The notes under the pieces are model-generated. The model did not search any database. It saw only the letters and a program-made list of their open reading frames with translations, and was not told the DNA's origin. Positions 11,601-52,639 of a stretch of DNA of 64,000 bases are shown in pieces. The position numbers were made by a program, and so were the translations under genes. Source of the DNA: Schmidtea polychroa (taxonomy: Eukaryota); assembly GCA_044892525.1 (NCBI GenBank), contig CM097887.1:53196001-53260000 (forward strand), written 5' to 3'. Every line of letters starts with the position of its first letter. Positions within the stretch are counted from its first letter, which is position 1.

Positions 11601-14600
11601 GTTTTTCATACTTCAAAAGTTAACTTTAAGTAATCGATTATTACCAGTTAAATTAACTTTATCTCATATATTATATTTAATAAAATAATGATAAATGTTG
11701 TTTATATAAAAATACTAAACAATTTTATTCTTATTTTTTTGTCGCATTTTTGTCTCAACTCGTTGTAATATGAATTTGATAATTTAGTACATAAGGTTGA
11801 GTTACATTAAGGAGAACAAGCCGTCAGAACCCAATACTTATCACGGTGATTCTAGTGCCTATATTGATGACTAGTAATTTCAGGCGTATAGATAAAGGTG
11901 TGGGGGACAATGGTGGGGTGAAGAAGGGCGATGATGTCAATGTAAGAAATGATGATTCTGTTGACACTGATAACAATGATATTAGCACTGATTGGGTAGT
12001 GATATGGTTAACAACCGAACTACATGCCGTAGCAATCTAACCAATAATAATGACCCTGTTAACCATAAGGATAACTTTAGTCCTAATAAGAGTGACACTG
12101 GCATTGAAATTGACATGGATAATAATAATGATAATATTAGCCTGAAAAGATAGTAACCATTATACCGCTACTGAAATGACAATAATTGATTTAAAGAGAA
12201 CGATAAGAATCATGAACCTAATAATGATAGTAACAATATTAATGATGATAACAATAATAATAATAATAATAATAATAACAATGTTAATAATATAAAGTGA
12301 TGATTTCCTGGTAGAAGCATTAATTAAATGTTAAGCATGTACAGTCGAACGTCTCATAATGCGCTAGATACGTTCTCAGAAAAGACTACGTAAAAGGAAA
12401 TCGCATTGTAAGAGATATAAACTTTATAGGAAATATGTAGAGGCCGGTTCCAAATAAGAAGCAATATGTTTCTTGTTTTAACAAAAACTTTATTGGTCGA
12501 TAATCAAAATATAATCAAAATTATATACAATTAAAAAAATCATATGTACTATATAACAAATTTCTGTTTAAATTTAACATAATCCAGGTAAAAAAGAATA
12601 ATGATTTGTAAATTAAATGAAATTAAATTCAAGTTAAAAAATCAAAATATAGATTTAAAAGAAATCCATTTGTATATTCACATAAATTCTTCTTCATCAT
12701 TACCTTTATATTACCTATTTAATAATTTATTCTTACTAATATTCACTGTAAAATAAAAATAATTGTTGTGATCTGTTTGGTTCTATGAATGAAAACAATT
12801 TAAAATGTACATAAAAAACGATCGAAAACTCCAACGTCTCGTAAAAAGTAAATTTGTTTGCTGAATTGGGGATTTCTGTTACGATATACAAAAATCGGGT
12901 TTTAAGAAAAAAAATTGCGCTACAAGAAAAATGTCCGCATTCATTTAACCGCGTTGTAGCGAAACGCGTTACAAGAGTGACGAGTTATAGGATGATTTAT
13001 TGTAAATGATAATATAAGCCTTTTTACTGCAAAATATATATTTAATAGAATGCAATAATTTTCGAATATAACATTAATATTAATTTTTCCTATTCATTAA
13101 CGCAAGATTTTACTCTATTTCTTGACTCTCAGTATGACTCCCCTTCCTGTATATCTCGCTTGCCATATTTGGTGGTCCCTTGCTGGGTTTGTCCAGATGA
13201 TCAAATCTCTCGGGACAGCCGAGTGATCTCCTGTAACTTTGCTACAATAATTGAGAAATGAAGAAAACTAAATTTTTTGCGTCAACTTATGACATTACAA
13301 CAGTTATCTAAAATTAAATAATCCCGAAGAGTAATAATGTTCCAATATATAAATTAACAATATTTCAAAAGGTTAGTAAATAGAAAGTTTGAACAGTCAA
13401 AACTCGTTAGAATTCTGAATTGACCAAAATATTTTTATAACTAAAGATTTGAATGTTTTATTTTCTGTTAATAAATAATAAATAAACTAAAATTTAATTA
13501 TTATAAAAACTTTTTTCCCAATTTCCCCACTGCTTTTTTCCCATTGTATTTATTAAAAAGAGCTTGATTTACAAGAACGTCGATATATTTACTGATTTAT
13601 AGTCTTCAAGCTCTTTTTAATAAATATAATTTAATTCAAATAAATTTTCGCGGTGTTTATTAATTGAAAACGTCAACCCCACAATAAGTCGTGTTAGTTT
13701 CAATAGGAAATTTAAATATTTAAATTTGTTCGATTTATTGTAATTTGAATAAATAGTTAAACATACATGGCAATGATTTAATTATAAGAAAACGCCAATC
13801 AAACACTCTTTTCACGATATATTTCGACAGTTTTCCTGTCATCATCAGGTGGTATATAATAACTATATTAATTTGTTTAAAATCCTTAATTTATATAGTT
13901 TTTATATCCTATCTGATAATGACAGGAAAACTGTCGAAATATATCGTGTAAAGAATGTTTGATTGGCGTTTTCTTATTATTGTACTTTATTATTTTTTTG
14001 AAAGCAAATATCTAGTGAACAACAAGAAATGAAAGAAATATTCATTTAGAAAGATCAGTTAAATTTCTTATTGAAGTGGACAGATCCTAAATTTTTCACT
14101 TATTAACCCTATTATTACCAGGTTGATATACTTACGACGTGACTTTAAGACACATTGAAAATGCATGTAGTTATATTAGTAAAATTATATTTTAATAATC
14201 CGCATAAGGAGTATTATGTTATTGGACAAAAATAAATTTTTAACGAAAATATTATATTATACAAGTAATTATATAAAAAATAAAATAAAAAGTAATCATT
14301 TATTTATACATGTTTTGCAAACGACGATTTTTTGCGAATGTTCATTACATACATTTTTTCCACATGCACTACAACATTGTTTGGAAGCTCGACTTTTTGC
14401 TGATGGACAATAGTTACATCGTCGCGCATATTTTTTTCTGGGACGGTTTTATCAACCACTAGAATATGGGAAGAATTTTCCAAAATTTCGTTCATTGTAT
14501 CAACGGTTGTTTAGGTAAATTTTTTACATTTCTACGTTTTATTTTTGGTATTACTAATTCTTGCACTAAATTCTTCAAAAATAATTTGCGTCACGAATTT

Positions 14601-18059: not shown

Positions 18060-18397
18060 GCTTTATTATAATTTATTTCTAGTTCTATTTCCAATGTTCG
18101 TAAAAATTATTGTTCGCGTTTTGGAAGGAAGTTTTAGTAATAAAGCTCACCTGCTCATTGGCTCTCTACGATTATGTACATTACCAACATGGTTATTGTT
18201 ATGGGTATATAGATGGAATATAAACGATCATGAAAGCGTTTATATGGATATTTCCACTTATATAAATTTGTCCTTATGTATTCAAATTCATATTTTCTTT
18301 TCCCAAACGCCAACAGGTATATTTTTCCAATCGCTTTCTTTTCTAATTTGAAATTTTTGCATTGTTCCTAGTTGTCTTTTTCCTTCAACTAAACAAC
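18060..18397 (+). repeat. Dispersed repeat; an inverted copy lies at 21699-22517, split by an insertion of about 480 bp
   Basis: 18060-18397 is the near reverse complement of 21699-21965 joined to 22448-22517. Confidence 0.85.
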
Positions 18398-21698: not shown

Positions 21699-22517
21699 TT
21701 GTTTAGTTGAAGGGAAAAACAACTAGGAAAAATACAAAAAATTTAAATTAGAAAGAAAGCGATTGGAAAAATATACCTGTTGACGTTTAGGGAAAGAAAA
21801 GATTAATTTGAATACATAAGGATAAATGTGTACAAGTGGAAATATCCATACAGAGGCTTTCATGATCGTTTATATTCTATCTATATACCCATAACAATAA
21901 CCATGTTGGTAATGTACATAATCGTAGAGAGCCAATGAGCAGGTGAGCTTTATTACTAAAACTATTCCTAATTGTGCTTTATATACGGGTTCTGGGCTGT
22001 CGATAGCATGACTTAGCATGACACTTCGGCTTCCGACAAAATCTCATCTAGATCAAAGAAATTTTAAGTCATATTTAGCGTAAAGGTCATGCCATCGATA
22101 TTAAGATCCATGTCTGGTGGAATCTCCTAGGTATGCAGTTTACTCAAGACCTTCATCGCCCATTGTTTGGCGTATCTGACCACCTTCTTCATTTGCTTTC
22201 ACTTCGGCTTCTGCAATGGTGGATTGGCATTATGAATTGTGGCGCACAAGTAAATTATGAGTGAAGGAATCCAAATCCTAGTAGATGGATCTCACGTCAA
22301 TCATATAATGAGCTAGAATCAGTTTGGCCATTTCAGAAGATTGAAGACTGTGAATTCTGTGCTGTAACTTGGTTTTAGTGTCGACCTGTTATAGGGCATG
22401 CGTCTGTTCCTTTAACTCTAACCGCAACTCTAAACTATCTGAAACTTATTCCTTCCAAAACTCCAACAATAATTTAAACGAACATTGGAATTAGAACTAG
22501 AAATAAATTATAATAAA
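21699..22517 (-). repeat. Inverted copy of the 18060-18397 repeat containing an insertion of about 480 bp
   Basis: Homology breaks at about 21965 and resumes at about 22448; attcct occurs at both junctions. Confidence 0.75.
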
Positions 22518-24852: not shown

Positions 24853-25639
24853 TAAAATAAATTTCACAGGGTACCAGAAAACAGAACAAAAAATGGTAAA
24901 ATCAATATAAGTACAAAATTAATTAAAATTTAATAAAAATTAAAAATCAATATTGAACGGGGGTATCGGGTATGGTTGAATGCCAAATTGTTAGACGAGG
25001 TTAGAAAGTATAATAAAAATGTAATAGGGTGACCATAGAAAAAGTTAATAAGGAAAAACAAATTAATTAAAATTAATTAATCTGTAATGGAAAGCCCGAG
25101 CCAATGGAAAGCCCGAGCCCATGGGAAACCCGAGCACTGAAGAAAACCCGATGCGCAGTGAGACCCGAGACACCAGATAAGGGAATAACAATTCGGATAA
25201 TAATCGCAGGGTAAATAAATTTAAATAATTGTCGAACCGTTCCAAATTTACTTAGGGTGCCCGGGGAAATAATTAATTTCATTTTGTTAGATAATTGGCC
25301 TCTTAAAAACAGTATAAAAGGAGAGCTTAGAAATGAGCAAGCCGCCATTTGGTCGAAGAGAAAAAGGAAAAATCTAAACAGAAAGTCCAGCAGGGACAAG
25401 TTAAAAGAGGAAAATTTGTGAGTTATAAAGAAGCTAAATCGTACAAGACAAGGTAATTACCCCTTGGGTTTCTTACCTTAGCGAACCAAATTCAAATTGA
25501 GAGAAAGGTGCAAATAGTGACAAATTGTAATTGTGATAAAAAGTGAATAAAGTTATTCTGTGTTGAGTTTTCGTTGATTTGGTAAAACAAGGACACGAGG
25601 AGTCAGAGACAGGACCGACTTACAAGTAAAAACTCAACA
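24853..25639 (+). repeat. LTR1 (first 20 bp in gap)
   Basis: Matches 38353-39139 and ends CAACA. TATAAAAG at 25313-25320; AATAAA at 25546-25551. Confidence 0.95.
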
Positions 25640-25642
25640 TTT

Positions 25643-25660
25643 TGGTGAGCCCGACGTGAT
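25643..25660 (+). promoter_or_regulatory. Primer binding site, tRNA-Trp
   Basis: TGGTGAGCCCGACGTGAT begins 3 nt after the LTR end. It is 17/18 identical to the classical tRNA-Trp PBS TGGTGACCCCGACGTGAT. Confidence 0.9.
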
Positions 25661-25895: not shown

Positions 25896-26106
25896 ATTGA
25901 ACAAATTGTGAAGTTGAAATAAAAGAGTGAAAGCTAAAAGATATTGAAATTAAGTTGTGGAAAAGTTACAAAAATTTATAAAAACTATTATTGGAAATTA
26001 ATTCAAAATTAAAACAAAAGGTAAAGTTAAAAATTGTAATTTTTTAAAATTTAGACAAGAAACAGTTGTCCAAGAGAAATTATACAATCTAAGAAGTAAA
26101 AAACAC

Positions 26107-29100
26107 TTGGAAAATATGGCGACGAGCAACTCAAATATCAATGAACAAATCTCAGTGTCTACTACTCAAGCGAACAATGGAAATGATTATGCCAGTTGTC
26201 AAAAGTTACCAGTTGAGCAATATGGAGGAGATCCAGTCCAATTTGTTGACTTTATGGCAGATTACTACATGTATGCCACAGCTTATGGATGGAGCCAAGC
26301 AACTATGGTACAACGTCTACCATTATATTTAAAAGGAGCTGCGCGAGAGGCTTGGCAACAGATTGACAAACGACCTATAGCAAATGATTGGACAAGATTG
26401 AAAGATGCATTGGCAGCCAAGTTGATTGGAGGAGATATAAAGAGAATGATGCGCCAAAAGTTCTACAGTCGAGTGCAAAAGCCCGAGGAATCCATAAGTG
26501 AGTTTGCTTATCATTTAACCACTCTTGCAGAGAAAGCGTTCGAAGTAAAGCCAGATCAAGAAGAAGTAGCAAAGCAAGTCAAAGAATTACTTCAGGACCA
26601 ATTTTTGACAGGAGTCAAGAAAGAAATCAAAAAGGCTTTATGTTTTGTTGATTTTACAAATTTTGATGACTTGATTAGAAAAGCCATGAGAATTGAAATG
26701 AATCTTAAAACGACTCAGTCAAAGGCGGAATCATTTGCGATTATCAATGAGCCTCGAGATAGATCTATAACCCCAGTCAGCGATAACTTGCTTCAAAGAT
26801 CAACCAGTCCATCTCCCAAGTTCAGAGTGAAATTTGAACAAAGAAAGTCAACAGACAGTCCAAATGAGGAAAGAGAAAGAACTCTACAATGCAGTCATTG
26901 CCAGAGAATGGGTCATCACATAAATCAATGCTGGTTTAAAAATAACATTCGAAGAAGCCCTAGTCCGGTTCAGTGTGATTACTGTCAAAGAAAAGGACAT
27001 AGCAATAGCCAATGTTGGTTCAAAAATAACGAACAGCGTAGTCCAAAGGGAATGCGGTCAGAATGGCTGAAAAGTAATGGTGAGAAAAGTTTTAACAGAA
27101 CGAATATCAGTAACCAGAGAACTAATGATAACATACAATGCTATAATTGTGGAAGGAAAGGACATGTCACTCGAAATTGTTTTGCAAGATCCAGATCTCT
27201 ATCAACATCACCCTCACCGCAAAGAGACAGAGTTAACTTACAAGGCCAAATCCAATGTCATTCCTGTAGAGGCTATGGACATATGGCTAGATCTTGTCCA
27301 AAGAGTAATAATATATTTCAAAGGCCGATATTAAAGAAGACGAGATTTCAGAAAGACAAATCGCAATCTGACAATATAGCTTTTGCGCAAACAGATGATT
27401 TTAACGAGAGGATTGAAAATGAGATGAAGCAGATGAGTAGACGCTTGGATCGATTAATGTGCAAATTCGAATCGGACGAAGAATTGAGTAACCACATGAT
27501 GTATGAGTCGCAATCAAAAGGATCAGAGGCAGATTCTAAAGAGAAATTGGATAAAGAAGACATAGAAAGAGAAAAAGTAACAATGATTATACTGAGGATC
27601 AACAGATTTATTAAAGAGAGAGCAACAGAAACATCTAAAGTAATCTCATCGCTAAAGGAATTGAGTCAAATGACAATGAGCATACAAAATTTGAAAAATG
27701 TAATTGAGTTATGTGCCGATTATTATGATACCAATTTAAAAGATGAAAAGGAAATTGAAAATGTGATGCAAATATTTGCGAAAACGTATCGAGAAAGTAC
27801 ATGGTTAGATTTTATTTTAATTAATGTTTTAGATGAAAATGAGAAAGAAGTAGCTTGCATTCGGTGTGAAGCAGGAGATTGTGTAGATGATTTAAAGAAT
27901 AGATTAGAAGAAAATAATGGGAAACAGATAATAGAATTGAAGTTTAAAAATCGATGCTTACGCAATGATGAGTTTTTAATTGATTGTGGTTTTATACCAG
28001 GAAATAAAAATAAAGTGATAGCAAAAATGACAAGACGTTATGAAAATGTAAAAAGCGATCCACAGAAAATTGTAAATGAGCTGAGAGAAGCTTTTGATGA
28101 GTGGAATAAAAATGCAATTGATGAAAAGTTGAAATTAGTAGAGGAAACGGAATTTGACGAAAATAGTAAATTAGAAATTGTAAATGTAGTACGTCCATAT
28201 GTATATAAAAACTCGAAATATAAAGAAATATTAAAAGGTTTATTACGAAAATTTGGAAAAGAGATTAGAGAGACCAGGATAGAATTGAAACCATTTGTAA
28301 TAGCGTTAGATTATAAAAATGAAGGAGAAATAGAGTATATAGAAGAACATTGGTGTACCAAGGTTGGTAAATTGCGAAAGAGAGCCGCTGAAAGAATGGG
28401 AAAGGATGGAATTATTCAATTGATATTTAAAAGTGAAGAATTAGATGACGATGAATATTTATACGATTGTGGGTTTATACCTCAAGAATTAGATGTAGAC
28501 GGATATTTATGTTCAGATACAGGATATTCACTAAATTATGTAATAGTAATTAAAAATCAGATATCAAATAAAGGATATGAGTCCGACAGGTCAAATGATG
28601 AGATAGAAAGGGATAATGAAAATGAAAGAAGAGTTGAAAATGAAGGTGTACTAGATAACAAGGACATAGGAACTAATGATAAAGATAAAGGTATAATAAC
28701 AGAAGTATTAAAGGAAGGGCAAGAAACCAAAAGTGAAGTGAATAGTGAAATAAAGACTAAAAAGCCTAGAACTTTGTATGAAATAAAAAAGAGCCTGGTG
28801 AAGTCAGAATTAGAAGTGGGTGAGACAAAAGAGTTATTAAAGAATTTAGATAAATTAATATATCCAATGTTCGAAATAAAATTGAATACAAAGTACGAAT
28901 TGGGAGACACAGTGAATGAAATGGAAAAGAAACTTCCTAGTGTTATGCAGAGATTTGGTGAAAATGATGACTTTTGTAATAGAGGGGTCATGAAAACTTT
29001 GACGAAAAATGGAATTGATAAAGAAGTAGTACTAACAAGCTTAACATATGCAGTTTTAGAGATAGGAGCTCATAAGATAATGGAATCAGATGAATTAGAG

Positions 29101-32100
29101 AATTTGATAGATGCAGCTGCTCGAGTTTTAAATGAATATTTAATGAATTGGATAAAAAGGAATGGAGGTTGGACCAAACTGGTAAAAGTGCTTACGATAA
29201 ATGAAAATAACGAAATTAATATACCCCATAAATCGCTAAATGGGAGAGTTAGCCCAATATTGAGAAAAACGATGGTATTTCCATGGGTAATGTTTATGAT
29301 AATTGTTTTGTGCGCAATAATTACCCAGACAACCTGTATGACTGCATTTGATTGTTCACAAACGGAAATGGGAAAAATTTATTCGGTAGTAGATGTGTCA
29401 GAATGTTCGGATGCATACCCGAGAAAACTAAAGGTTGAAAAAGATGTAAAATATCATGTATATCAAGAGTCTGATTTAAGACGAACGAAGGTTCGAGAAT
29501 GTATAGTCAAAAGTACCACATTTATATTTTATTGTTGGAAGTGGAGCCATACTTCATTGATAAAGATGTATACAATCCCAAGGCCAGTGGAAGTTATGCC
29601 AGAAAATTGTTTAGCAGCATTTCAAACAGAAGAATTGAAAATAAGTTCGAAAATTAAATTGAAGGCAAAAATAAATCATAGGACGAGAGAAACGGTGGTT
29701 ACGAAAGGATTAATGAAGCAAGACGGAGATTGTGAAGGGGAACCGTACAAAGTCAGTGGTAAAATTATTCAAAAAGCAGTAGTGATAGAAGAATATCTAA
29801 CGGAATTGAGAGAATTTGAAGGAGCTTTTGATGATGATACGGGGAAGTTACAGACCCACCCATTTTGTAATATGAAACAAAATAACTGTCAAACGGGGGG
29901 ATCAATTCTTGTTTATGAAGTAAAAACTAATGTATGTAACTTAGCGCATTTAAAAACGATGAATTTCAAAGAAATTAGTGGAGAGCAGTTTAGGGAAAGG
30001 CCTGACAATATTAATGTAAATTATGGAGTAAATATGACAATCAGATCAACGCCCGTTTGGACAAGAAAAACAGCGACTGTATTAATGTCGATAATTCCGA
30101 TGGACGCCATGCGTTTTATATTAAAGGAAGTTACCAATAAATGTGGTCAGACGGTATACTCCACAAATTACAAAGGAGTTTACGTATCAACAGTAAGAGT
30201 ACAGGAAGCTAAAACGAGAATTCATACGGGTGATATTAAATTAACCCATTACTTTAACAATAAAATTGATTACTTATTTCATTATAGTCAGAACACCATG
30301 GAGAATATCTATCGAGAAATAATCTTAAATGATTGTAAATTAAATAAAGAAATACTTCGAAATCGAATGGCAATGGCCATCACAAACCCAAATTTGGTTG
30401 CACCCATGTTAATATCAGAAAATGGAGTATTTGCGAGAATCTTCGGAGAAGCTTTATATAGTTATAAATGCAAGGAAGTGTCAGTAAAAATAATGAAATA
30501 CGAAAAATGTACTAATGAATTGCCAGTTAGCGTCGATGGGAAGATGCGATTTATGGAACCAATAACACGGATATTACTTGACGAAAACACAAAACCAAAA
30601 TTGCTCCAGTGCAATAGATTGCTAGCCCCGTTATATCTTTTGGCACCAGACTCTTGGGTAGCATTACCCGATTACCGAGGAGTTAGAACTCCAGATAAAT
30701 TGGAATTAATCAATTTAGAGTATTTAGTGAACTTTACATCCCTAAATAAAATGGCACAACTAGGTCTCTACGCAAGCGAGGATATAGAAGAAGCTCAAAG
30801 AAATTTATTATTTCCATCAAAGAAAGAACGGGTGATATCAGAAATGATTGATACAATATTACCAAACGGAGAGAGTAAAGTTAATTATGAATATCTCCTA
30901 ACGCCAGATCATTTCAAAAAAGCAACGTACAAAACGATGGAAAAGATTTGGGGAAAATTTATGTTCTTAGGACAAGCGTGTGCTGGTTTGATTGGCATCT
31001 ATGTGATCGTAGTAACAATAAAGGTGATACTATCTCAAATTTTATCTGCTCATAGAATATATAAAATATCCGGATGGTCGTGGAAAATAATTATTGGTTG
31101 TATTCCGTTTATAGCAAGATTTTTTATTACTCATCATCAATATAAAGAAATGGAGAATGTGAGAGCACAGTTAAAAACGGATCAAAAGAGTGAAGAATCC
31201 TTGTGTGAATCGAGGGATAGAAATAGTGGCAATAACACCAACAATGACAATGGCAGAAACGAGCAAATGTATTTTAGAAAAGAAATAATGAAAAGCGAGG
31301 TAAAACCAGAGTCACGGTGCCTACTAGAACAGATGCCAAAACTTACAGGAATCGACACTCTCTCAAAATGGTATACACCGGTATTCCTTCCAACAGCACC
31401 AACATATCTAAGTGAAAGGCTAAAAGAAATGAAACCAGTAGAACATATTAAACTAGAAGCTGAAAGGATTGAACCAACAAGTGCCGAAATAGAACGGAAA
31501 AACATGCTCGGATTACCATGTAGTTATGCGTTGATGACAATAGGAAATAGAGGCAAACAACCTCGAACAAATATACTATTTAACGAGAGAAAGGTCAAAG
31601 CCTTGTTAGACTCCGGTTCCAGTCATACTATAGTGTCAGATAAACTGTTGACAAGGGAAGAGAGAGCAAAGATGAAACCGACGAATAAAATTATTAAATC
31701 AATGTCTCACAATGTACTGAATATAATCGGGAAGCTAGAAGTCAAATTAATTATTGGTAATCAAGAAATAACACATTATGTGTCAGTAATGAGTAAAAGC
31801 CCTGTTGAATGTCTAATTGGTATGGATGTTATGGAGCAACTGCGAGGAATTGCGCTGGATCTGACAACAGGAAAATTAATAAAGGGACAATTAGATACAG
31901 TTGCAAATAAACCAAGAGAAGTTGTTTTAAATCAAACGTTGGAAATACCAGCAAGAAGCGAAATAATATGTTATGCTAGTGTAGCAAACACGTCAGATGA
32001 CGAATGTGTTTTCGAACCCAGTCGAAAACTAGTAGAGAAATACGAATTGCCAATGTGCGACGAGATAGTACAGGTAAAAGATCAGGCAGTCCCAGTGAGA

Positions 32101-35100
32101 ATGGCTAATCTTAGCACAAAATCTATCCAAATGAAACCTAACACGAAGTTAGGAAAGTTAATGAAATTTAAAACAGAAGAAGCCCAAAAATTACCGAGAA
32201 ACATTAAAATTTATAGAAAACCACAAGTGACGAGCAATGATTTGACAGACGCACAAAAACAACAGTTTATGGCATTATTAAAAAAGTACAAAAGAGTATT
32301 TGCAAAGCACGAGTACGATTTGGGACTTACCCAGGTGATCGAACATGAGATACCACTACTCGATGAAACTCCTATTAAATTACGACCGTATAGAATCCCT
32401 TATATACATCAAGAGGAAAGTGATAGACAGATAAAAGCGATGAAAGAGTTTGACATAATAAGAGACAGTTCATCACCATTCTCATCCTCAATAGTAGTAG
32501 TCAAAAAGAAAGACGGCGATTTACGGTTTTGTGTGGATTATAGAAAATTGAATCAGGCTACAAGAAAAGACCCCTACCCTATTCCAGTTCCACCGGAAAT
32601 GTTTGATCAAATGGGAGAAGTACAATTCATCACAGTAATCGATTTGAATAAGGGATATAATCAATTTAAAGTAAAAGAAGAAGATAGAAGGAAAACGGCA
32701 TTTTCAGATGGTAAAGGTTTGTACGAATTCAATGTGTTACCATTTGGCTTAACGGGAGCGCCAGCCACGTTCCAGCGAGGTATGAATTTTGTATTAAGAG
32801 ACATCCCACACGCATTAGTTTATATTGATGATATAATAATATTTTCGAATAATTTTCAGGAACATTTGGAAGATGTAGAAACAGTATTCCAAAGATTGTT
32901 AAAGGCGAATTTAAAAATAAAACCCTCAAAATGTGAATGGGGGAAATCAGAGGTAGTCTATGTTGGTCATATTATATCCCGAAGAGGATTACAGCCAAAC
33001 CCAGAAAATGTAGAAAAAATTAAAAATTATCCAATTCCAAAAAATGTAGATCATGTTAGACAATTTCTCGGATTAGCCAGTTATTATAGAAAATTCATTA
33101 AAAATTTTGCGCATGTAGCACAACCCCTGAACATATTATTAAAAAAGCAGGCTCAATTTAAATGGACAAAAACACAACAGGAAGCGTTCGAATCGTTGAA
33201 AGAAAGTTTGATTAAAAAACCAATATTGAGATGTCCAAATTTTAAAATACCATTTATCCTAATGACAGATGCGAGCAATTTTGCGTTGGGCGCAGTGCTA
33301 GGACAACAGGTTGAAGGAGAAAGAGATCACGTTATCGCATATGCGAGTAGAACTTTGAAACCGCATGAAAAGAATTATTCTACGATTGAAAAAGAAACGT
33401 TGGCATTAGTTTATGGAATAACTACATTTCGACAGTATTTAGTTGGGAGAAGATTTGTTGTCTTTACGGACCATAACCCTTTACAATGGCTCATGAAGCA
33501 TAGAGATTCAACAAGTAAGTTGATTAGATGGTCAATCGCACTACAGGAATATGATTTTGAAATCAAATACCGTACGGGTAAATCAAATGCAAATGCAGAC
33601 ACACTGTCGAGAATCCCTGAGGAAAATAATAATAATAATGAAAAAACGAACTATAATGATACAATATTTATGGTAATTAAATCAGCAAATAATATAAAGG
33701 AATTACAATATGATCAAGAAAATGATGAGGAACTAAATCAATTACGAAAAAATGCAGTAACAATTAAAAAGGAGAGTGATTGGAAACATATTGTTGAGGA
33801 AAAACATAAATATATTATCCACGAGGGTTTATTAAAATGTGTAAAAAATGAAAATTTGCTAATTATAGTTCCAGCAAAACATCGAGAAGCATTATTGTTG
33901 ATTTACCACGATGGAGCACTAGGAGGACATTTATCGGCTCGAAAAACATTATCAAGACTGAAATTGAAGTATTATTGGGAGACAATGGAACAAGATGTCA
34001 AACAATGGTGCCATACTTGTAAAGTATGTTTGACAAGACGAAATACAGGAAGGAAAATAAAAGTTCCACTAAGACCTATGCCGGTGCCAGCAGCGCCAAT
34101 GGAAATGACAGCAATGGACATTGTCGGTCCATTGCCGGAAACAATAAATGGCAATAAATATATTGTTGTATTTTGCGACTATCTAACTAAGTGGCCAGAA
34201 GCATATGCCATGCAAAATCAAAAGGCAGAAACAGTTGCAAAAATATTAGTAGAAAACATTATTTTCCGATATGGAGCACCAAAGAAATTACTTACAGATC
34301 AGGGAACGAATTTTCAAAGTGAATTATTTAGTTCGATATCGGAGCTATTTGGTATATTAAAACTTAGTACATCACCATATCATCCACAAACAGATGGCCT
34401 AGTAGAAAGGTTTAACGGAACATTAATTAATATGATATCATCTTATGTAAATCGAAAACAAAGAGATTGGGATTTATTTATCAAACCATGTTTATTCGCA
34501 TATCGAAACGCAGTTAATGAAAGCACTGGTGAAACACCCTTTTATCTTATGTATCTACGGCGAAATAATATGCCAATTGATTTGAAATTTCAAACACCTA
34601 TATCACAGTATATGGATATATCCGATTATAAAGTAATCATGCATGAGAGATTACAGTCAGTGTGGGCTCAAGCTGGTTTAAAAATAAGACATAGCCAAGA
34701 AACGTATAAAGAATCCTACTACAAGAAAGCACATGCTCATAATATTAAAATAGGAGATTTAGTCTATGTGAATAAACCAGAACCAGAAAAGGGCTTGTCA
34801 CCAAAGTTACAACGACCGTTTAAAGGACCGTATATTGTATGTGATACAACAGAAACCAACCTCAAATTACATCCACAGAATAATAAAAAGGCTGGGACAA
34901 TTATAGTTCATGCAAATCGTTGTAAGAAAGTGCCGGCAATGGAGAGTGATAGATATCCATTAAGATCGAAAAAGAACAAATCAGTAGAAGAAAAAGTGGT
35001 CAAGCAAAAAGTTATTAAAAACCCAGTACCCTTAGGATATACCACGAAAGTCTTATTGATAACAACAATGATGCTACTAAATGTTTTGGGAACAAAGGCA

Positions 35101-36261
35101 GGTAGATCTTTTCCAAAGTATGCAATAAAAAGGGTCCCATTATTGGATAAAATTCATATATATTCAACATGTACCCAAATAGTATGGTTTTATCTGTGTG
35201 GGTCAACGGAAGAAATAGAAATAAGTAATCTATTAAATCACTTTAACCCACCTGTAAGATTGAATTTCAATAAAAATATTTTCGTGGCTCGTCAATTAAC
35301 AGTCAATTATGAATACACTTGGCAAATAACAGAGTTACTATTTCAAAATAATAATACAAAAATACGTAATATAATCCAAATTGAAATATTAACAAAAAAT
35401 TTAAACAGTCTGGTTTCAATAGAACCAGTAGTGAATGGAATCGACGTATATTGGGAACCCCACGAATCCCAAAAAGTGAAATTAATATTCCAAAATAATA
35501 TTATCGATACATTAAACATCAGAAAACCCTTTGTCCATTACAATAATTTAAAATTAAATCAAACGTATGATATCGTTGTGCAATATTATGAAAAGCTTTT
35601 GCGGGAAAATGGTACCGAAATCGATAACCAGTGGGTAAAAATTGAGTCTACTCGACAATCCATAAAATTAGAAAATGAACCAAATCGTATTATTTTACGA
35701 TATGATAATCAAAAATGGATAGCCACACGACAAGCGATAACCAATAACAAAGTGGAAATTTATTATTGCGGAAAACTGCAAGCTATATTGCAAGGTAATA
35801 TTACATCTAAAATATTAACATTTCAGCAAATACGTTCAAAGTCAACTTCAAAAATTGTGATTGTAAAGATAAAATATTATCAACGTGCTTTTCATCCCGA
35901 TCATTGGAAAATCGTTCTAGTGGAAAGTAAATCTATTCGAGTACCATTTGATACAGCTGAGGTAGAAAGCTCAAAAAATATGCACAATTCATCAACCAAT
36001 GTGATTCATCAACTCATAAATGACATTAATTCTTCTTTTATTAATGGAACACAAATTCCAAGAAATAAAACTACATTCTCATTATCAAATGATTTTGAAA
36101 ATACTTATGTTATTTTGTCATCTATCATCATCAGTGTGACACCATTTTCCATTATCATTCTTCTCACTCTACTGATTTACTTTCAAAGACTGAACAGACA
36201 ATATGAATGTCAATCCAAGACCTCACAACCTTGGATTGTCTACGAGGAAACATGGGTCTAG
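26107..36261 (+). CDS. Gag-UBL-UBL-Bcl2-like-Env-PR-RT-RH-IN-membrane protein polyprotein, copy 1 (3384 aa; first ATG 26116)
   Basis: Retrotransposon Gag core; 4 CX2CX4HX4C knuckles (26890-27297); WIKRNGGW (29149); signal segment (29272-29337); Cys-rich glycoprotein with TM (29338-31131); LLDSGS (31609); YIDD (32821); TDAS..E..TDH (33268 onward); HHCC, DDE and GPY integrase (about 33850-34940); C-terminal TM (36109-36183). Confidence 0.97.
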   Translation: MENMATSNSNINEQISVSTTQANNGNDYASCQKLPVEQYGGDPVQFVDFMADYYMYATAYGWSQATMVQRLPLYLKGAAREAWQQIDKRPIANDWTRLKDALAAKLIGGDIKRMMRQKFYSRVQKPEESISEFAYHLTTLAEKAFEVKPDQEEVAKQVKELLQDQFLTGVKKEIKKALCFVDFTNFDDLIRKAMRIEMNLKTTQSKAESFAIINEPRDRSITPVSDNLLQRSTSPSPKFRVKFEQRKSTDSPNEERERTLQCSHCQRMGHHINQCWFKNNIRRSPSPVQCDYCQRKGHSNSQCWFKNNEQRSPKGMRSEWLKSNGEKSFNRTNISNQRTNDNIQCYNCGRKGHVTRNCFARSRSLSTSPSPQRDRVNLQGQIQCHSCRGYGHMARSCPKSNNIFQRPILKKTRFQKDKSQSDNIAFAQTDDFNERIENEMKQMSRRLDRLMCKFESDEELSNHMMYESQSKGSEADSKEKLDKEDIEREKVTMIILRINRFIKERATETSKVISSLKELSQMTMSIQNLKNVIELCADYYDTNLKDEKEIENVMQIFAKTYRESTWLDFILINVLDENEKEVACIRCEAGDCVDDLKNRLEENNGKQIIELKFKNRCLRNDEFLIDCGFIPGNKNKVIAKMTRRYENVKSDPQKIVNELREAFDEWNKNAIDEKLKLVEETEFDENSKLEIVNVVRPYVYKNSKYKEILKGLLRKFGKEIRETRIELKPFVIALDYKNEGEIEYIEEHWCTKVGKLRKRAAERMGKDGIIQLIFKSEELDDDEYLYDCGFIPQELDVDGYLCSDTGYSLNYVIVIKNQISNKGYESDRSNDEIERDNENERRVENEGVLDNKDIGTNDKDKGIITEVLKEGQETKSEVNSEIKTKKPRTLYEIKKSLVKSELEVGETKELLKNLDKLIYPMFEIKLNTKYELGDTVNEMEKKLPSVMQRFGENDDFCNRGVMKTLTKNGIDKEVVLTSLTYAVLEIGAHKIMESDELENLIDAAARVLNEYLMNWIKRNGGWTKLVKVLTINENNEINIPHKSLNGRVSPILRKTMVFPWVMFMIIVLCAIITQTTCMTAFDCSQTEMGKIYSVVDVSECSDAYPRKLKVEKDVKYHVYQESDLRRTKVRECIVKSTTFIFYCWKWSHTSLIKMYTIPRPVEVMPENCLAAFQTEELKISSKIKLKAKINHRTRETVVTKGLMKQDGDCEGEPYKVSGKIIQKAVVIEEYLTELREFEGAFDDDTGKLQTHPFCNMKQNNCQTGGSILVYEVKTNVCNLAHLKTMNFKEISGEQFRERPDNINVNYGVNMTIRSTPVWTRKTATVLMSIIPMDAMRFILKEVTNKCGQTVYSTNYKGVYVSTVRVQEAKTRIHTGDIKLTHYFNNKIDYLFHYSQNTMENIYREIILNDCKLNKEILRNRMAMAITNPNLVAPMLISENGVFARIFGEALYSYKCKEVSVKIMKYEKCTNELPVSVDGKMRFMEPITRILLDENTKPKLLQCNRLLAPLYLLAPDSWVALPDYRGVRTPDKLELINLEYLVNFTSLNKMAQLGLYASEDIEEAQRNLLFPSKKERVISEMIDTILPNGESKVNYEYLLTPDHFKKATYKTMEKIWGKFMFLGQACAGLIGIYVIVVTIKVILSQILSAHRIYKISGWSWKIIIGCIPFIARFFITHHQYKEMENVRAQLKTDQKSEESLCESRDRNSGNNTNNDNGRNEQMYFRKEIMKSEVKPESRCLLEQMPKLTGIDTLSKWYTPVFLPTAPTYLSERLKEMKPVEHIKLEAERIEPTSAEIERKNMLGLPCSYALMTIGNRGKQPRTNILFNERKVKALLDSGSSHTIVSDKLLTREERAKMKPTNKIIKSMSHNVLNIIGKLEVKLIIGNQEITHYVSVMSKSPVECLIGMDVMEQLRGIALDLTTGKLIKGQLDTVANKPREVVLNQTLEIPARSEIICYASVANTSDDECVFEPSRKLVEKYELPMCDEIVQVKDQAVPVRMANLSTKSIQMKPNTKLGKLMKFKTEEAQKLPRNIKIYRKPQVTSNDLTDAQKQQFMALLKKYKRVFAKHEYDLGLTQVIEHEIPLLDETPIKLRPYRIPYIHQEESDRQIKAMKEFDIIRDSSSPFSSSIVVVKKKDGDLRFCVDYRKLNQATRKDPYPIPVPPEMFDQMGEVQFITVIDLNKGYNQFKVKEEDRRKTAFSDGKGLYEFNVLPFGLTGAPATFQRGMNFVLRDIPHALVYIDDIIIFSNNFQEHLEDVETVFQRLLKANLKIKPSKCEWGKSEVVYVGHIISRRGLQPNPENVEKIKNYPIPKNVDHVRQFLGLASYYRKFIKNFAHVAQPLNILLKKQAQFKWTKTQQEAFESLKESLIKKPILRCPNFKIPFILMTDASNFALGAVLGQQVEGERDHVIAYASRTLKPHEKNYSTIEKETLALVYGITTFRQYLVGRRFVVFTDHNPLQWLMKHRDSTSKLIRWSIALQEYDFEIKYRTGKSNANADTLSRIPEENNNNNEKTNYNDTIFMVIKSANNIKELQYDQENDEELNQLRKNAVTIKKESDWKHIVEEKHKYIIHEGLLKCVKNENLLIIVPAKHREALLLIYHDGALGGHLSARKTLSRLKLKYYWETMEQDVKQWCHTCKVCLTRRNTGRKIKVPLRPMPVPAAPMEMTAMDIVGPLPETINGNKYIVVFCDYLTKWPEAYAMQNQKAETVAKILVENIIFRYGAPKKLLTDQGTNFQSELFSSISELFGILKLSTSPYHPQTDGLVERFNGTLINMISSYVNRKQRDWDLFIKPCLFAYRNAVNESTGETPFYLMYLRRNNMPIDLKFQTPISQYMDISDYKVIMHERLQSVWAQAGLKIRHSQETYKESYYKKAHAHNIKIGDLVYVNKPEPEKGLSPKLQRPFKGPYIVCDTTETNLKLHPQNNKKAGTIIVHANRCKKVPAMESDRYPLRSKKNKSVEEKVVKQKVIKNPVPLGYTTKVLLITTMMLLNVLGTKAGRSFPKYAIKRVPLLDKIHIYSTCTQIVWFYLCGSTEEIEISNLLNHFNPPVRLNFNKNIFVARQLTVNYEYTWQITELLFQNNNTKIRNIIQIEILTKNLNSLVSIEPVVNGIDVYWEPHESQKVKLIFQNNIIDTLNIRKPFVHYNNLKLNQTYDIVVQYYEKLLRENGTEIDNQWVKIESTRQSIKLENEPNRIILRYDNQKWIATRQAITNNKVEIYYCGKLQAILQGNITSKILTFQQIRSKSTSKIVIVKIKYYQRAFHPDHWKIVLVESKSIRVPFDTAEVESSKNMHNSSTNVIHQLINDINSSFINGTQIPRNKTTFSLSNDFENTYVILSSIIISVTPFSIIILLTLLIYFQRLNRQYECQSKTSQPWIVYEETWV

Positions 36262-36622
36262 TGAGATACATTTATTTTGCATGCAATTATGATATTATAA
36301 TAGTACTGTATTAGTAGTAACTTTTATGATAGTTGTAAAATTTGCACCTTTCAATCAAAGAGAAATATGATTGGCTGAGAGGGATAGAAAAATAAATATG
36401 AACTAAATTTTATGGGAAAGAAAATTTAATAACTGTACATAAGGGGTCGTAAAAATAATTAAAATCAGTTTAATTAATTCAATCAAAAAATTAAGATCTT
36501 TCAAAATTGAATAGGTAAATTTTTATTAATATTTATTATTTATACAGTGATCACCAAGGCAGTGCCCCTGAGGTACTCTACCGTGTTGATCACTTCAATC
36601 TTAAATTCTAACAAATTTAATA

Positions 36623-38065
36623 GTGAATATTTCAGTAATGGAACAAATCCAAAGAACTAGAGCAATTTATGATGGATATTTGAAGATACACCGCAACCAC
36701 GTGGGACAAGATGCCATCACCATCAATGACAACCTGAAAATCCCAAACTACTTGAGGGTGGACGACAGAAAAATGAAAACTCAAATTTTTAAAGTGAGCC
36801 GGAAATCGGTGAAAATAATAGAAGAAGATGAAATCAAGGATGGAAATGAGTACACGCTACACGTGATCAAAGGGAAAGTGGAGGTAATAGACGAACGACA
36901 AAAAGTCTATTGGGAATTACACCAAGGATCATCGTGGAAACTGCAGAAAGAAACCTTGAGGAAAAGGTTGAGAGCATCCAATGAAGATTCAAGAGTTGTT
37001 GTGGAAACACGAAGCCCGAACGAGGAAAATGAAATTCCACAAACCACTTCAAAATTGCCAGATGATCCAACCATGCTTCCAATTACTACAGAAATGCTGA
37101 AAAGAAGATGGTCATTTATTCGAAAAGAAATGAGTTTGGAGGAGATACGGAACCGAATTGTGTTTATGGATGCAGAATATGGAACATCAGAAAATAATAA
37201 AATGATTCCATTGTCAATAGCGATGATGAATTATGAAGGGAAAATAATTAAAAATTCATATTTGACACCAAGAGGAAGATTGCGTCATTTCAATTCCAGC
37301 ATTCATGGTATCACAGAGATTGCCAGTAGAAACCAATGCGACCAGTACACGGAGATGCGAGAAGTGCAAAAACTAACTGTTGGAAAAATTTTAGTGGGAC
37401 ATGATCTTCATGCAGAATTGGAATATTTGAAAATCTGGACAAATCAGTTGTACGGAATTAGGGATTTAGCAACAGCACAGGCACTCCAACTGAAAGGAAT
37501 AACAAGGAAAGGAGAATTCTTTAAACTTAAAACAGTGGTTGAAGAAGTACTCGGAGAACAAACACAAACTGGTATTCACTCAGCATTGGAAGATGTCAAA
37601 AAAGTACGGAGAGTGTACAGGGAAATTGAGAATTTATGGGAAGATGATGTAAAAATCCAGAAAATAGTCCCATCAAAGAAATATTCTTTAGCCGAATATC
37701 AAAAACTTCATGCGATGGACAAAATACCAACAACGAGTGGAACATCCTGTGAGATAGTAGAACAAGTTGATCTAACAATTGAGGAACAAATGGAAATTGA
37801 CGAAGCACCGTTGAAATGGGCAACGGAAGAATATTTGGAGCCGATCAAGGAAAGCCTCGAAATGATAATAAGTTCATCGATCCACAGAATTCCGGCATCA
37901 TTCGAACATGGGCCTATACTTCATTTAGAGAATAGGAAAAGAAAATCGACAACAAAAATCGAAGCCAGCGAATCCATCATGGTGAATGGAATAGTCTATT
38001 ATCGGGAGAAAACATATATCCGCTACAAGAGTGAGGCGGGAGAAATAGAATTAAAAATTGATTAA
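36623..38065 (+). CDS. ORF2, copy 1: REX4/ISG20-like DEDDh 3'-5' exonuclease with N-terminal beta-rich domain (first ATG 36638)
   Basis: VFMDAEYG (Exo I, 37169), IHGIT, ILVGHDLHAEL (Exo II, 37397), IRDL, GIHSALEDV (Exo III, 37577). Confidence 0.9.
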   Translation: MNISVMEQIQRTRAIYDGYLKIHRNHVGQDAITINDNLKIPNYLRVDDRKMKTQIFKVSRKSVKIIEEDEIKDGNEYTLHVIKGKVEVIDERQKVYWELHQGSSWKLQKETLRKRLRASNEDSRVVVETRSPNEENEIPQTTSKLPDDPTMLPITTEMLKRRWSFIRKEMSLEEIRNRIVFMDAEYGTSENNKMIPLSIAMMNYEGKIIKNSYLTPRGRLRHFNSSIHGITEIASRNQCDQYTEMREVQKLTVGKILVGHDLHAELEYLKIWTNQLYGIRDLATAQALQLKGITRKGEFFKLKTVVEEVLGEQTQTGIHSALEDVKKVRRVYREIENLWEDDVKIQKIVPSKKYSLAEYQKLHAMDKIPTTSGTSCEIVEQVDLTIEEQMEIDEAPLKWATEEYLEPIKESLEMIISSSIHRIPASFEHGPILHLENRKRKSTTKIEASESIMVNGIVYYREKTYIRYKSEAGEIELKID

Positions 38066-38332: not shown

Positions 38333-39139
38333 TGTTGGGGTTAGAGCAAAAATAAAATAAATTTCACAGGGTACCAGAAAACAGAACAAAAAATGGTAAA
38401 ATCAATATAAGTACAAAATTAATTAAAATTTAATAAAAATTAAAAATCAATATTGAACGGGGGTATCGGGTATGGTTGAATGCCAAATTGTTAGACGAGG
38501 TTAGAAAGTATAATAAAAATGTAATAGGGTGACCATAGAAAAAGTTAATAAGGAAAAACAAATTAATTAAAATTAATTAATCTGTAATGGAAAGCCCGAG
38601 CCAATGGAAAGCCCGAGCCCATGGGAAACCCGAGCACTGAAGAAAACCCGATGCGCAGTGAGACCCGAGACACCAGATAAGGGAATAACAATTCGGATAA
38701 TAATCGCAGGGTAAATAAATTTAAATAATTGTCGAACCGTTCCAAATTTACTTAGGGTGCCCGGGGAAATAATTAATTTCATTTTGTTAGATAATTGGCC
38801 TCTTAAAAACAGTATAAAAGGAGAGCTTAGAAATGAGCAAGCCGCCATTTGGTCGAAGAGAAAAAGGAAAAATCTAAACAGAAAGTCCAGCAGGGACAAG
38901 TTAAAAGAGGAAAATTTGTGAGTTATAAAGAAGCTAAATCGTACAAGACAAGGTAATTACCCCTTGGGTTTCTTACCTTAGCGAACCAAATTCAAATTGA
39001 GAGAAAGGTGCAAATAGTGACAAATTGTAATTGTGATAAAAAGTGAATAAAGTTATTCTGTGTTGAGTTTTCGTTGATTTGGTAAAACAAGGACACGAGG
39101 AGTCAGAGACAGGACCGACTTACAAGTAAAAACTCAACA
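38333..39139 (+). repeat. LTR2 (shared middle LTR, 807 bp)
   Basis: TGTTG...CAACA termini, preceded by the PPT and followed by the PBS. Confidence 0.97.
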
Positions 39140-39395: not shown

Positions 39396-39606
39396 ATTGA
39401 ACAAATTGTGAAGTTGAAATAAAAGAGTGAAAGCTAAAAGATATTGAAATTAAGTTGTGGAAAAGTTACAAAAATTTATAAAAACTATTATTGGAAATTA
39501 ATTCAAAATTAAAACAAAAGGTAAAGTTAAAAATTGTAATTTTTTAAAATTTAGACAAGAAACAGTTGTCCAAGAGAAATTATACAATCTAAGAAGTAAA
39601 AAACAC

Positions 39607-42600
39607 TTGGAAAATATGGCGACGAGCAACTCAAATATCAATGAACAAATCTCAGTGTCTACTACTCAAGCGAACAATGGAAATGATTATGCCAGTTGTC
39701 AAAAGTTACCAGTTGAGCAATATGGAGGAGATCCAGTCCAATTTGTTGACTTTATGGCAGATTACTACATGTATGCCACAGCTTATGGATGGAGCCAAGC
39801 AACTATGGTACAACGTCTACCATTATATTTAAAAGGAGCTGCGCGAGAGGCTTGGCAACAGATTGACAAACGACCTATAGCAAATGATTGGACAAGATTG
39901 AAAGATGCATTGGCAGCCAAGTTGATTGGAGGAGATATAAAGAGAATGATGCGCCAAAAGTTCTACAGTCGAGTGCAAAAGCCCGAGGAATCCATAAGTG
40001 AGTTTGCTTATCATTTAACCACTCTTGCAGAGAAAGCGTTCGAAGTAAAGCCAGATCAAGAAGAAGTAGCAAAGCAAGTCAAAGAATTACTTCAGGACCA
40101 ATTTTTGACAGGAGTCAAGAAAGAAATCAAAAAGGCTTTATGTTTTGTTGATTTTACAAATTTTGATGACTTGATTAGAAAAGCCATGAGAATTGAAATG
40201 AATCTTAAAACGACTCAGTCAAAGGCGGAATCATTTGCGATTATCAATGAGCCTCGAGATAGATCTATAACCCCAGTCAGCGATAACTTGCTTCAAAGAT
40301 CAACCAGTCCATCTCCCAAGTTCAGAGTGAAATTTGAACAAAGAAAGTCAACAGACAGTCCAAATGAGGAAAGAGAAAGAACTCTACAATGCAGTCATTG
40401 CCAGAGAATGGGTCATCACATAAATCAATGCTGGTTTAAAAATAACATTCGAAGAAGCCCTAGTCCGGTTCAGTGTGATTACTGTCAAAGAAAAGGACAT
40501 AGCAATAGCCAATGTTGGTTCAAAAATAACGAACAGCGTAGTCCAAAGGGAATGCGGTCAGAATGGCTGAAAAGTAATGGTGAGAAAAGTTTTAACAGAA
40601 CGAATATCAGTAACCAGAGAACTAATGATAACATACAATGCTATAATTGTGGAAGGAAAGGACATGTCACTCGAAATTGTTTTGCAAGATCCAGATCTCT
40701 ATCAACATCACCCTCACCGCAAAGAGACAGAGTTAACTTACAAGGCCAAATCCAATGTCATTCCTGTAGAGGCTATGGACATATGGCTAGATCTTGTCCA
40801 AAGAGTAATAATATATTTCAAAGGCCGATATTAAAGAAGACGAGATTTCAGAAAGACAAATCGCAATCTGACAATATAGCTTTTGCGCAAACAGATGATT
40901 TTAACGAGAGGATTGAAAATGAGATGAAGCAGATGAGTAGACGCTTGGATCGATTAATGTGCAAATTCGAATCGGACGAAGAATTGAGTAACCACATGAT
41001 GTATGAGTCGCAATCAAAAGGATCAGAGGCAGATTCTAAAGAGAAATTGGATAAAGAAGACATAGAAAGAGAAAAAGTAACAATGATTATACTGAGGATC
41101 AACAGATTTATTAAAGAGAGAGCAACAGAAACATCTAAAGTAATCTCATCGCTAAAGGAATTGAGTCAAATGACAATGAGCATACAAAATTTGAAAAATG
41201 TAATTGAGTTATGTGCCGATTATTATGATACCAATTTAAAAGATGAAAAGGAAATTGAAAATGTGATGCAAATATTTGCGAAAACGTATCGAGAAAGTAC
41301 ATGGTTAGATTTTATTTTAATTAATGTTTTAGATGAAAATGAGAAAGAAGTAGCTTGCATTCGGTGTGAAGCAGGAGATTGTGTAGATGATTTAAAGAAT
41401 AGATTAGAAGAAAATAATGGGAAACAGATAATAGAATTGAAGTTTAAAAATCGATGCTTACGCAATGATGAGTTTTTAATTGATTGTGGTTTTATACCAG
41501 GAAATAAAAATAAAGTGATAGCAAAAATGACAAGACGTTATGAAAATGTAAAAAGCGATCCACAGAAAATTGTAAATGAGCTGAGAGAAGCTTTTGATGA
41601 GTGGAATAAAAATGCAATTGATGAAAAGTTGAAATTAGTAGAGGAAACGGAATTTGACGAAAATAGTAAATTAGAAATTGTAAATGTAGTACGTCCATAT
41701 GTATATAAAAACTCGAAATATAAAGAAATATTAAAAGGTTTATTACGAAAATTTGGAAAAGAGATTAGAGAGACCAGGATAGAATTGAAACCATTTGTAA
41801 TAGCGTTAGATTATAAAAATGAAGGAGAAATAGAGTATATAGAAGAACATTGGTGTACCAAGGTTGGTAAATTGCGAAAGAGAGCCGCTGAAAGAATGGG
41901 AAAGGATGGAATTATTCAATTGATATTTAAAAGTGAAGAATTAGATGACGATGAATATTTATACGATTGTGGGTTTATACCTCAAGAATTAGATGTAGAC
42001 GGATATTTATGTTCAGATACAGGATATTCACTAAATTATGTAATAGTAATTAAAAATCAGATATCAAATAAAGGATATGAGTCCGACAGGTCAAATGATG
42101 AGATAGAAAGGGATAATGAAAATGAAAGAAGAGTTGAAAATGAAGGTGTACTAGATAACAAGGACATAGGAACTAATGATAAAGATAAAGGTATAATAAC
42201 AGAAGTATTAAAGGAAGGGCAAGAAACCAAAAGTGAAGTGAATAGTGAAATAAAGACTAAAAAGCCTAGAACTTTGTATGAAATAAAAAAGAGCCTGGTG
42301 AAGTCAGAATTAGAAGTGGGTGAGACAAAAGAGTTATTAAAGAATTTAGATAAATTAATATATCCAATGTTCGAAATAAAATTGAATACAAAGTACGAAT
42401 TGGGAGACACAGTGAATGAAATGGAAAAGAAACTTCCTAGTGTTATGCAGAGATTTGGTGAAAATGATGACTTTTGTAATAGAGGGGTCATGAAAACTTT
42501 GACGAAAAATGGAATTGATAAAGAAGTAGTACTAACAAGCTTAACATATGCAGTTTTAGAGATAGGAGCTCATAAGATAATGGAATCAGATGAATTAGAG

Positions 42601-51832: not shown

Positions 51833-52639
51833 TGTTGGGGTTAGAGCAAAAATAAAATAAATTTCACAGGGTACCAGAAAACAGAACAAAAAATGGTAAA
51901 ATCAATATAAGTACAAAATTAATTAAAATTTAATAAAAATTAAAAATCAATATTGAACGGGGGTATCGGGTATGGTTGAATGCCAAATTGTTAGACGAGG
52001 TTAGAAAGTATAATAAAAATGTAATAGGGTGACCATAGAAAAAGTTAATAAGGAAAAACAAATTAATTAAAATTAATTAATCTGTAATGGAAAGCCCGAG
52101 CCAATGGAAAGCCCGAGCCCATGGGAAACCCGAGCACTGAAGAAAACCCGATGCGCAGTGAGACCCGAGACACCAGATAAGGGAATAACAATTCGGATAA
52201 TAATCGCAGGGTAAATAAATTTAAATAATTGTCGAACCGTTCCAAATTTACTTAGGGTGCCCGGGGAAATAATTAATTTCATTTTGTTAGATAATTGGCC
52301 TCTTAAAAACAGTATAAAAGGAGAGCTTAGAAATGAGCAAGCCGCCATTTGGTCGAAGAGAAAAAGGAAAAATCTAAACAGAAAGTCCAGCAGGGACAAG
52401 TTAAAAGAGGAAAATTTGTGAGTTATAAAGAAGCTAAATCGTACAAGACAAGGTAATTACCCCTTGGGTTTCTTACCTTAGCGAACCAAATTCAAATTGA
52501 GAGAAAGGTGCAAATAGTGACAAATTGTAATTGTGATAAAAAGTGAATAAAGTTATTCTGTGTTGAGTTTTCGTTGATTTGGTAAAACAAGGACACGAGG
52601 AGTCAGAGACAGGACCGACTTACAAGTTAAAACTCAACA
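51833..52639 (+). repeat. LTR3 (3' LTR, 807 bp)
   Basis: TGTTG...CAACA followed by TATATA flank. It has one visible difference from LTR1/2 (T at 52628 versus A). Confidence 0.97.

Follow-up and report, generated by a model that had tools for sequence, protein, structure and literature searches.

A paired helical bundle and ubiquitin-fold unit in a Burro-type retroelement of Schmidtea polychroa

Why would a retroelement carry two ubiquitin-like domains between its nucleocapsid and a Bcl-2-like domain? The question is raised by a stretch of 64,000 nucleotides of the Schmidtea polychroa genome (assembly GCA_044892525.1, contig CM097887.1, positions 53,196,001 to 53,260,000 of the forward strand), referred to below as the window and numbered from its first base. 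It carries a long terminal repeat (LTR) retroelement whose first open reading frame (ORF1; 26002..36261, on the + strand like every other feature of the element, 3419 codons stop to stop, first Met at 26116) encodes both domains. Both repeats represent a single unit, in which a predicted bundle of four helices packs on a domain with the ubiquitin fold. This unit is found across the lineage of Burro-type elements and has in part been published. We tentatively favour for it the role of a built-in protein-binding adaptor, and not that of a cutting signal.

The repeated unit and its ubiquitin-like half

The Pfam order of ORF1 is retrotransposon Gag, CCHC knuckles, Bcl-2-like domain, Monjiviricetes fusion glycoprotein, aspartyl protease, reverse transcriptase (RT), RNase H (RH) and integrase (IN). 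Four CCHC knuckles follow the Gag CA, and the two modules come next. The first consists of helical bundle 1 (27556..27798, amino acids 519-599, four predicted helices) and the ubiquitin-like domain (UBL) UBL1 (27808..28032). The second consists of bundle 2 (28057..28284, amino acids 686-761), which belongs to the same family by profile, and UBL2 (28285..28560; PF00240, E 0.04), which has an insertion of about 15 residues before its last strand. An acidic and poorly conserved linker (28561..28767) then leads to the Bcl-2-like domain (28768..29199, Pfam stretch at amino acids 971-1057; E 2e-5 for the piece searched by itself, short of the cut-off). The modules occupy a fixed position, after the nucleocapsid and before the signal segment of Env.

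Structure prediction, the check proposed in the initial annotation of this locus, gave the UBL of module 1 a beta-grasp fold with a conserved hydrophobic core; in module 2 the same fold is assigned by homology. Together with the repeat itself and the shared family of the two bundles, this confirms the duplicated helical and ubiquitin-like module that had been described there. The two-domain model of bundle and UBL in module 1 reached a predicted template modelling score (pTM) of 0.86, which argues for a fixed packing of one on the other. AlphaFold on the single sequence of both modules was unusable (pLDDT 41). Homology to the ubiquitin family is provided by a profile match to ISG15 (E 2e-7) and by ubiquitin clusters of the ESM Atlas at 0.91; single UBL sequences fall below the Pfam cut-offs, and an identity of about 10-24% is seen with chains of the ubiquitin family. 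With the module region as query, word-indexed homologue searches gave no match at near or longer lengths, and the one match obtained with phmmer against the PDB was set aside as chance.

Neither UBL1 nor UBL2 ends in di-Gly, as had been noted at the outset. A GG within about 30 residues was seen at one of the 21 UBL ends listed and not at the other 20; it belongs to a Burro-1-like unit (F2) and is missing from its orthologue in P0023. The UBL end of family D, which the GG pattern had missed, showed no GG on separate inspection.

The surface of the domain was compared across 24 modules, in an alignment from which the misaligned ubiquitin positions 1-15 were dropped, the equivalent of L8 not being reliably alignable. 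Core positions are kept. At the Ile44 position, 16 modules, for the most part of the module-2 and single-module types, have a hydrophobic residue, and this is Ile in three (UBL2 of this element has Ile); the residue is Lys or Arg in module 1 of families A, B and C, of which A includes this element (Lys in UBL1). Arg42 and His68 are kept in none, and position 70 is often polar. Judged from this alignment, the L8/I44/H68/V70 patch of ubiquitin appears to be lost in module 1 and partly kept in module 2. Other surface positions are conserved: Gly60 (22/24), Glu54 and a basic residue at 27 (19/24 each), an aromatic residue at 55 and Asn67 (17/24 each); position 18 is His in 11 of the 24. Part of this non-canonical surface would pack on the bundle. 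The absence of a conserved di-Gly and the erosion of the ubiquitin patch point to an integral UBL and not to a cleavage tag of the pestivirus type. The integral UBLs of Rad23, Dsk2, BAG6 and parkin are likewise beta-grasp domains without di-Gly; the UBL of the element differs from them by its eroded canonical patch and by the four-helix bundle that always precedes it.

Distribution, descent and relation to Burro elements

A genome search returned at least 150 scored matches, mainly to family A (mostly 90-100% identical) and to family B (about 53%). Scans with the Bcl-2, fusion-protein and BIR families brought to light C, D, E and the giant family F, which has MATH and a BIR-RING ORF. The unit is present twice in A, B and C, once in D and E, and three times in F (two copies before MATH and one after). 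At two family F loci (L052:2853-4289 and L064:4255-5433), separate TRAF-like ORFs (RING, zinc fingers and MATH, read by eye) and BIR-RING ORFs were observed. In a library of 1.84 billion proteins, 429 matches have E values of 0.001 or less, most of them poly-UBL proteins; among the 150 listed, 12 align over both halves, and 11 of these are real units, several of them lying in recognisable Gag or Gag-Env proteins. The twelfth was rejected as a repeat-protein false positive.

Between families A and B, the ratio of non-synonymous to synonymous rates (dN/dS) is 0.29 for helix 1, 0.31 for UBL1, 0.23 for helix 2, 0.17 for UBL2 and for the Bcl-2-like domain, and 0.52 for the linker that follows the modules, dS for the modules and the linker being near saturation. 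Between A and C it was mostly not computable, helix 2 giving 0.72. These ratios indicate that the module domains are under purifying selection. In a tree of 24 units, the second units of A, B and C fall into one starred group, and their first units group together with one library unit. The duplication therefore predates the split of the three families. The ancestral type is probably represented by module 2, of which module 1 would be the diverged duplicate.

This element is a Burro-type Gag-Env-Pol member of Ty3/gypsy by its single ORF, env placement, pol order, UBL followed by a BCL2-like domain, and LTR hallmarks. The Burro elements of planarians, giant and gypsy-like, carry a Ubi2/SUMO-like domain ahead of BCL-2 and have env placed between gag and pol, as presented in the available text of a 2019 review (Arkhipova and Yushenova 2019, PMC6431247). 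Burro/GYPSM1 thus shares with this element one ORF, Gag, CCHC, a UBL before BCL-2, an in-frame env and the order PR-RT-RH-IN; Burro-1/GYPSM1 proper exceeds 30 kb with MATH and BIR, whereas this element is 14.3 kb long and has neither. Family F of the same genome, whose Env, RT, RH and IN are 35-62% identical to those of this element, carries MATH together with a BIR-RING ORF, in line with the description of Burro/GYPSM1. The same text notes one UBL, between MATH and BCL-2, and its available part makes no mention of the paired bundle, the duplication, the two further family F units before MATH or the AT-hook-like motif discussed below. It considers the extra Burro domains as possible interference with host ubiquitination and apoptosis. 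GAG-ENV-POL errantiviruses with an HSV/gB-type env, reported from Platyhelminthes, Nematoda and Bryozoa in the main text of a second study (PMC13524379), have the same Gag-Env-Pol order and chuvirus-like fusion protein as this element; the words ubiquitin, Bcl and Burro have no occurrence in that main text. A UBL before BCL-2 in Burro is hence already in print, and the paired bundle apparently is not: in the literature searched, no description was found of the paired bundle, the variation in copy number or an IBD-like or AT-hook feature, and repeat-library annotations and the supplements of PMC13524379, outside this search, may bear on the matter.

Possible functions of the unit

As an adaptor, the unit would operate as follows. 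Gag and the modules would be cytosolic, a topology supported by hydropathy, which places a signal-like segment after the Bcl-2-like domain (29257..29349, the predicted signal peptide of Env), a transmembrane segment in Env (29338..31272, a Monjiviricetes/chuvirus-type fusion glycoprotein; PF24664, E 2e-87) and a third segment, also transmembrane, at the C-terminus. Gag would be severed at a site upstream of module 1 by the element's own aspartyl protease, and the signal segment, doubling as tail anchor, would keep the resulting product (module, module, linker, Bcl-2-like domain and anchor) next to Env, on the cytosolic side of the membrane. Through a conserved surface of their own, the modules would there engage capsid or host proteins, and this binding may help envelopment and dampen host ubiquitin or cell-death signalling. 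In L056, L051 and P0124, a motif of the type R/K-I-N-M/L-hydrophobic is repeated at domain borders, and it flanks the modules in family F; it is probably the cut site of the element protease.

Several points weigh against this adaptor. The putative protease sites were read by eye from conserved hydrophobic islands of linker sequence in the A/B/C alignment, and a binding partner of the modules was neither identified nor predicted. Contigs of four sequencing runs cover the stretch, and none of them is on record as RNA. The grouping of module 2 with the single module of D and E has a support of 85/89 and is drawn open. Lastly, the AT-hook-like motif of 6 out of 10 relatives is more in keeping with a role in the nucleus or in DNA binding than with one at the membrane.

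The alternative that survives best, unlikely as it is, is a self-encoded chromatin tether, in which the bundle, being IBD/TND-like, would bind the element's integrase or host TND-interacting motifs and guide the integration complex together with the AT-hook of the relatives. In lentiviruses, this complex is guided by host LEDGF, which they must hijack. The bundle had resembled the TFIIS-N/LEDGF-IBD domain by eye, prior to the profile searches. Against 177,635 PDB sequences, a helix-only profile of 10 rows placed the LEDGF IBD at rank 7 (E 0.24) and one of 17 rows, with rows in common with the former, placed it at rank 1 (E 0.071, 42 ungapped columns), neither match being significant. A host TFIIS-type exon was the best non-element match of the whole-module profile among the loci compared (E 0.085). 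Furthermore, of the 10 elements with sufficient sequence, 6 have the AT-hook-like motif [KR]GRP in the interval from the last unit to the Bcl-2 or signal region, where shuffling would yield 0.07. Its carriers are L030, L051, P0031, P0041, P0045 and P0124; families A, B and C, including the linker of this element, lack it. The likeness to the IBD of LEDGF/p75 and HRP-2, which has the TND fold, extends to size, to the pattern of the first two to three helices and to the AT-hook neighbours in the element's relatives, LEDGF having AT-hooks as well.

Other searches gave this tether no support. LEDGF was missing from the PDB matches, at E up to 10, of a profile built from just the nine library relatives. 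Pfam on 17 helical blocks returned neither LEDGF nor Med26 among the 25 families listed out of 30, and genome scans with PF11467 and PF08711 found no element copies among the loci checked. With a 24-row profile, no host IBD/TND pieces were present in the top 15 non-element matches of 3,824 sequences, and the reversed control scored equally. Comparison by hhalign with host IBD and TND pieces was negative, the reversed control being higher, in a test that also missed IBD against TND. The fold-search lists were taken up by the UBL half, and the absence of IBD and TND from them speaks neither for nor against the tether. The bundle model has four helices whereas TNDs have five, according to the accessible text of PMC9987994. 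The element also departs from LEDGF/p75 and HRP-2 in that the match was not reproduced, in its UBL fusion and in the lack of any chromatin-reader domain seen. Since the library-only profile, Pfam and the local ranking were negative and the helices number four and not five, the LEDGF-IBD/TND identity of the bundle stays a weak lead. It is rather unlikely, in turn, that Burro-type elements encode a LEDGF-like tether of their own (IBD-like bundle and ubiquitin fold, followed by an AT-hook in most relatives) that would be cut from Gag and would dock the integration complex on chromatin without a host factor.

Other candidates were discarded: six chance matches of helix 1 alone in the PDB by phmmer, and a weak helix-profile match in a downstream ORF of family F, which is a coiled-coil membrane protein. 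An ESM Atlas search with helix 1 gave no usable match. The host genome also contains an expanded cluster of intron-poor TND genes, presumably IWS1-like, at about 14 places (G000:C2:170.8-172.5 Mb, C2:164.2 Mb and C31).

We consider improbable a built-in late domain, in which the UBL would replace ubiquitin on Gag and recruit ESCRT for budding. PTAP/PSAP, PPxY and YPxnL motifs are absent from all 10 Gag-side regions scanned, and the hydrophobic residue at position 44 in two thirds of the modules is in its favour. In the available text of PMC2958808, ubiquitin fused to Gag can substitute for late domains, and this rescue requires L8 and I44; the scarcity of Ile at 44, the loss of His68, the polar residues at 70 and the Lys or Arg of module 1 speak against it, and the obligate helical partner would be left unexplained. 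There is a low probability that the unit is a proteasome shuttle, or a decoy for ubiquitin-binding host proteins, tuning the turnover of Gag or of the Bcl-2-like protein. The initial suggestion of a proteasome or ESCRT link retains at best weak support if it relies on the canonical patch: position 44 agrees in part, and His68, Arg42 and module 1 do not. A small chance is left to roles outside these readings.

Cleavage by host deubiquitinases needs a C-terminal Gly. That the modules form a processing signal for these enzymes, as first proposed, is very improbable: ubiquitin inserts are known in pestivirus polyproteins (available text of PMC13517609) and appear among the viral fold matches, but those, found in cytopathogenic strains, are host ubiquitins that act as cleavage signals, and the element, which has its own aspartyl protease, shares with them a ubiquitin fold inside a polyprotein, in old, diverged and conserved domains with low identity to ubiquitin-family chains and no conserved di-Gly. 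BEL/Pao-type elements of the same genome (DUF1759 Gag), in which many ubiquitin copies were seen, present a separate case. Three of them (L044:2467-6513 (-), L045:3674-7858 (+) and L046:2550-6008 (-)) have one or two near-canonical ubiquitins directly before Gag, the first of which ends in RGG in L044 and L045. Host-like fragments lie in frame upstream, a dual-specificity phosphatase in L045 and EAP30/Vps36 and proteasome-subunit pieces in L046. As candidates for a cleavable ubiquitin leader, these ubiquitins are much more convincing than the modules of the window.

The tandem copies and the meaning of the unit

Self-BLAST resolved two tandem 14.3-kb copies of the element, with a middle LTR common to both and one difference in 14,288 bases. 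This head-to-tail pair (24853-52639) is a very recent tandem or assembly duplication. The 5' LTR of copy 1 is visible at 24853..25639, its first bases lying in an N stretch, and ends in CA; it is followed by a primer-binding site (25643..25660), which we take to be tRNA-Trp-like. No tRNA gene was found in the window. ORF2 (36605..38065, 486 codons) encodes a DEDDh exonuclease-like domain (PF00929, E 7e-5, just under the cut-off), preceded by an N-terminal part of about 130 residues without assignment. The middle LTR (38333..39139, 807 bp, TG...CA) has a polypurine tract just before it. Both modules of the second copy (41056..42060) are identical to those of the first, their ORF (39502-49761) having 0 differences in 10,260 bases, and the 3' LTR of this copy lies at 51833..52639. 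The full frame of 3419 codons is found only in these two among the first 20 family A places listed. Target-site duplications of 4 bp flank all 11 solo LTRs among the 27 LTR loci read, which leave out the three LTRs of the window. Both modules assemble together outside this assembly as well, since one contig of run X1, a run perhaps not independent, spans 27301-28480.

Past the integrase, the frame of ORF1 runs on for about 450 residues (~34900-36258), with a signal-like segment, a beta-rich domain without convincing Pfam match and the C-terminal transmembrane segment; this region is possibly a second surface protein. The flanks of the pair contain palindromic elements resembling miniature inverted-repeat transposable elements (13780-13981 and 54426-54614) and an inverted pair of 267 bp, 92% identical (18130-18396 and 21699-21963).

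The available text of the 2019 review (PMC6431247) left the module region half-annotated, and the unit is now defined. Compact and predicted to fold well, it counts about 160 residues, occurs in one to three copies in every member of the lineage examined, and can be expressed and tested alone. With host deubiquitinase cleavage now very unlikely, the evidence points to a non-canonical binding surface. Should the bundle prove to be IBD-like, the retroelement would carry, in a version of its own, the host factor on which HIV integrase relies for the choice of sites.
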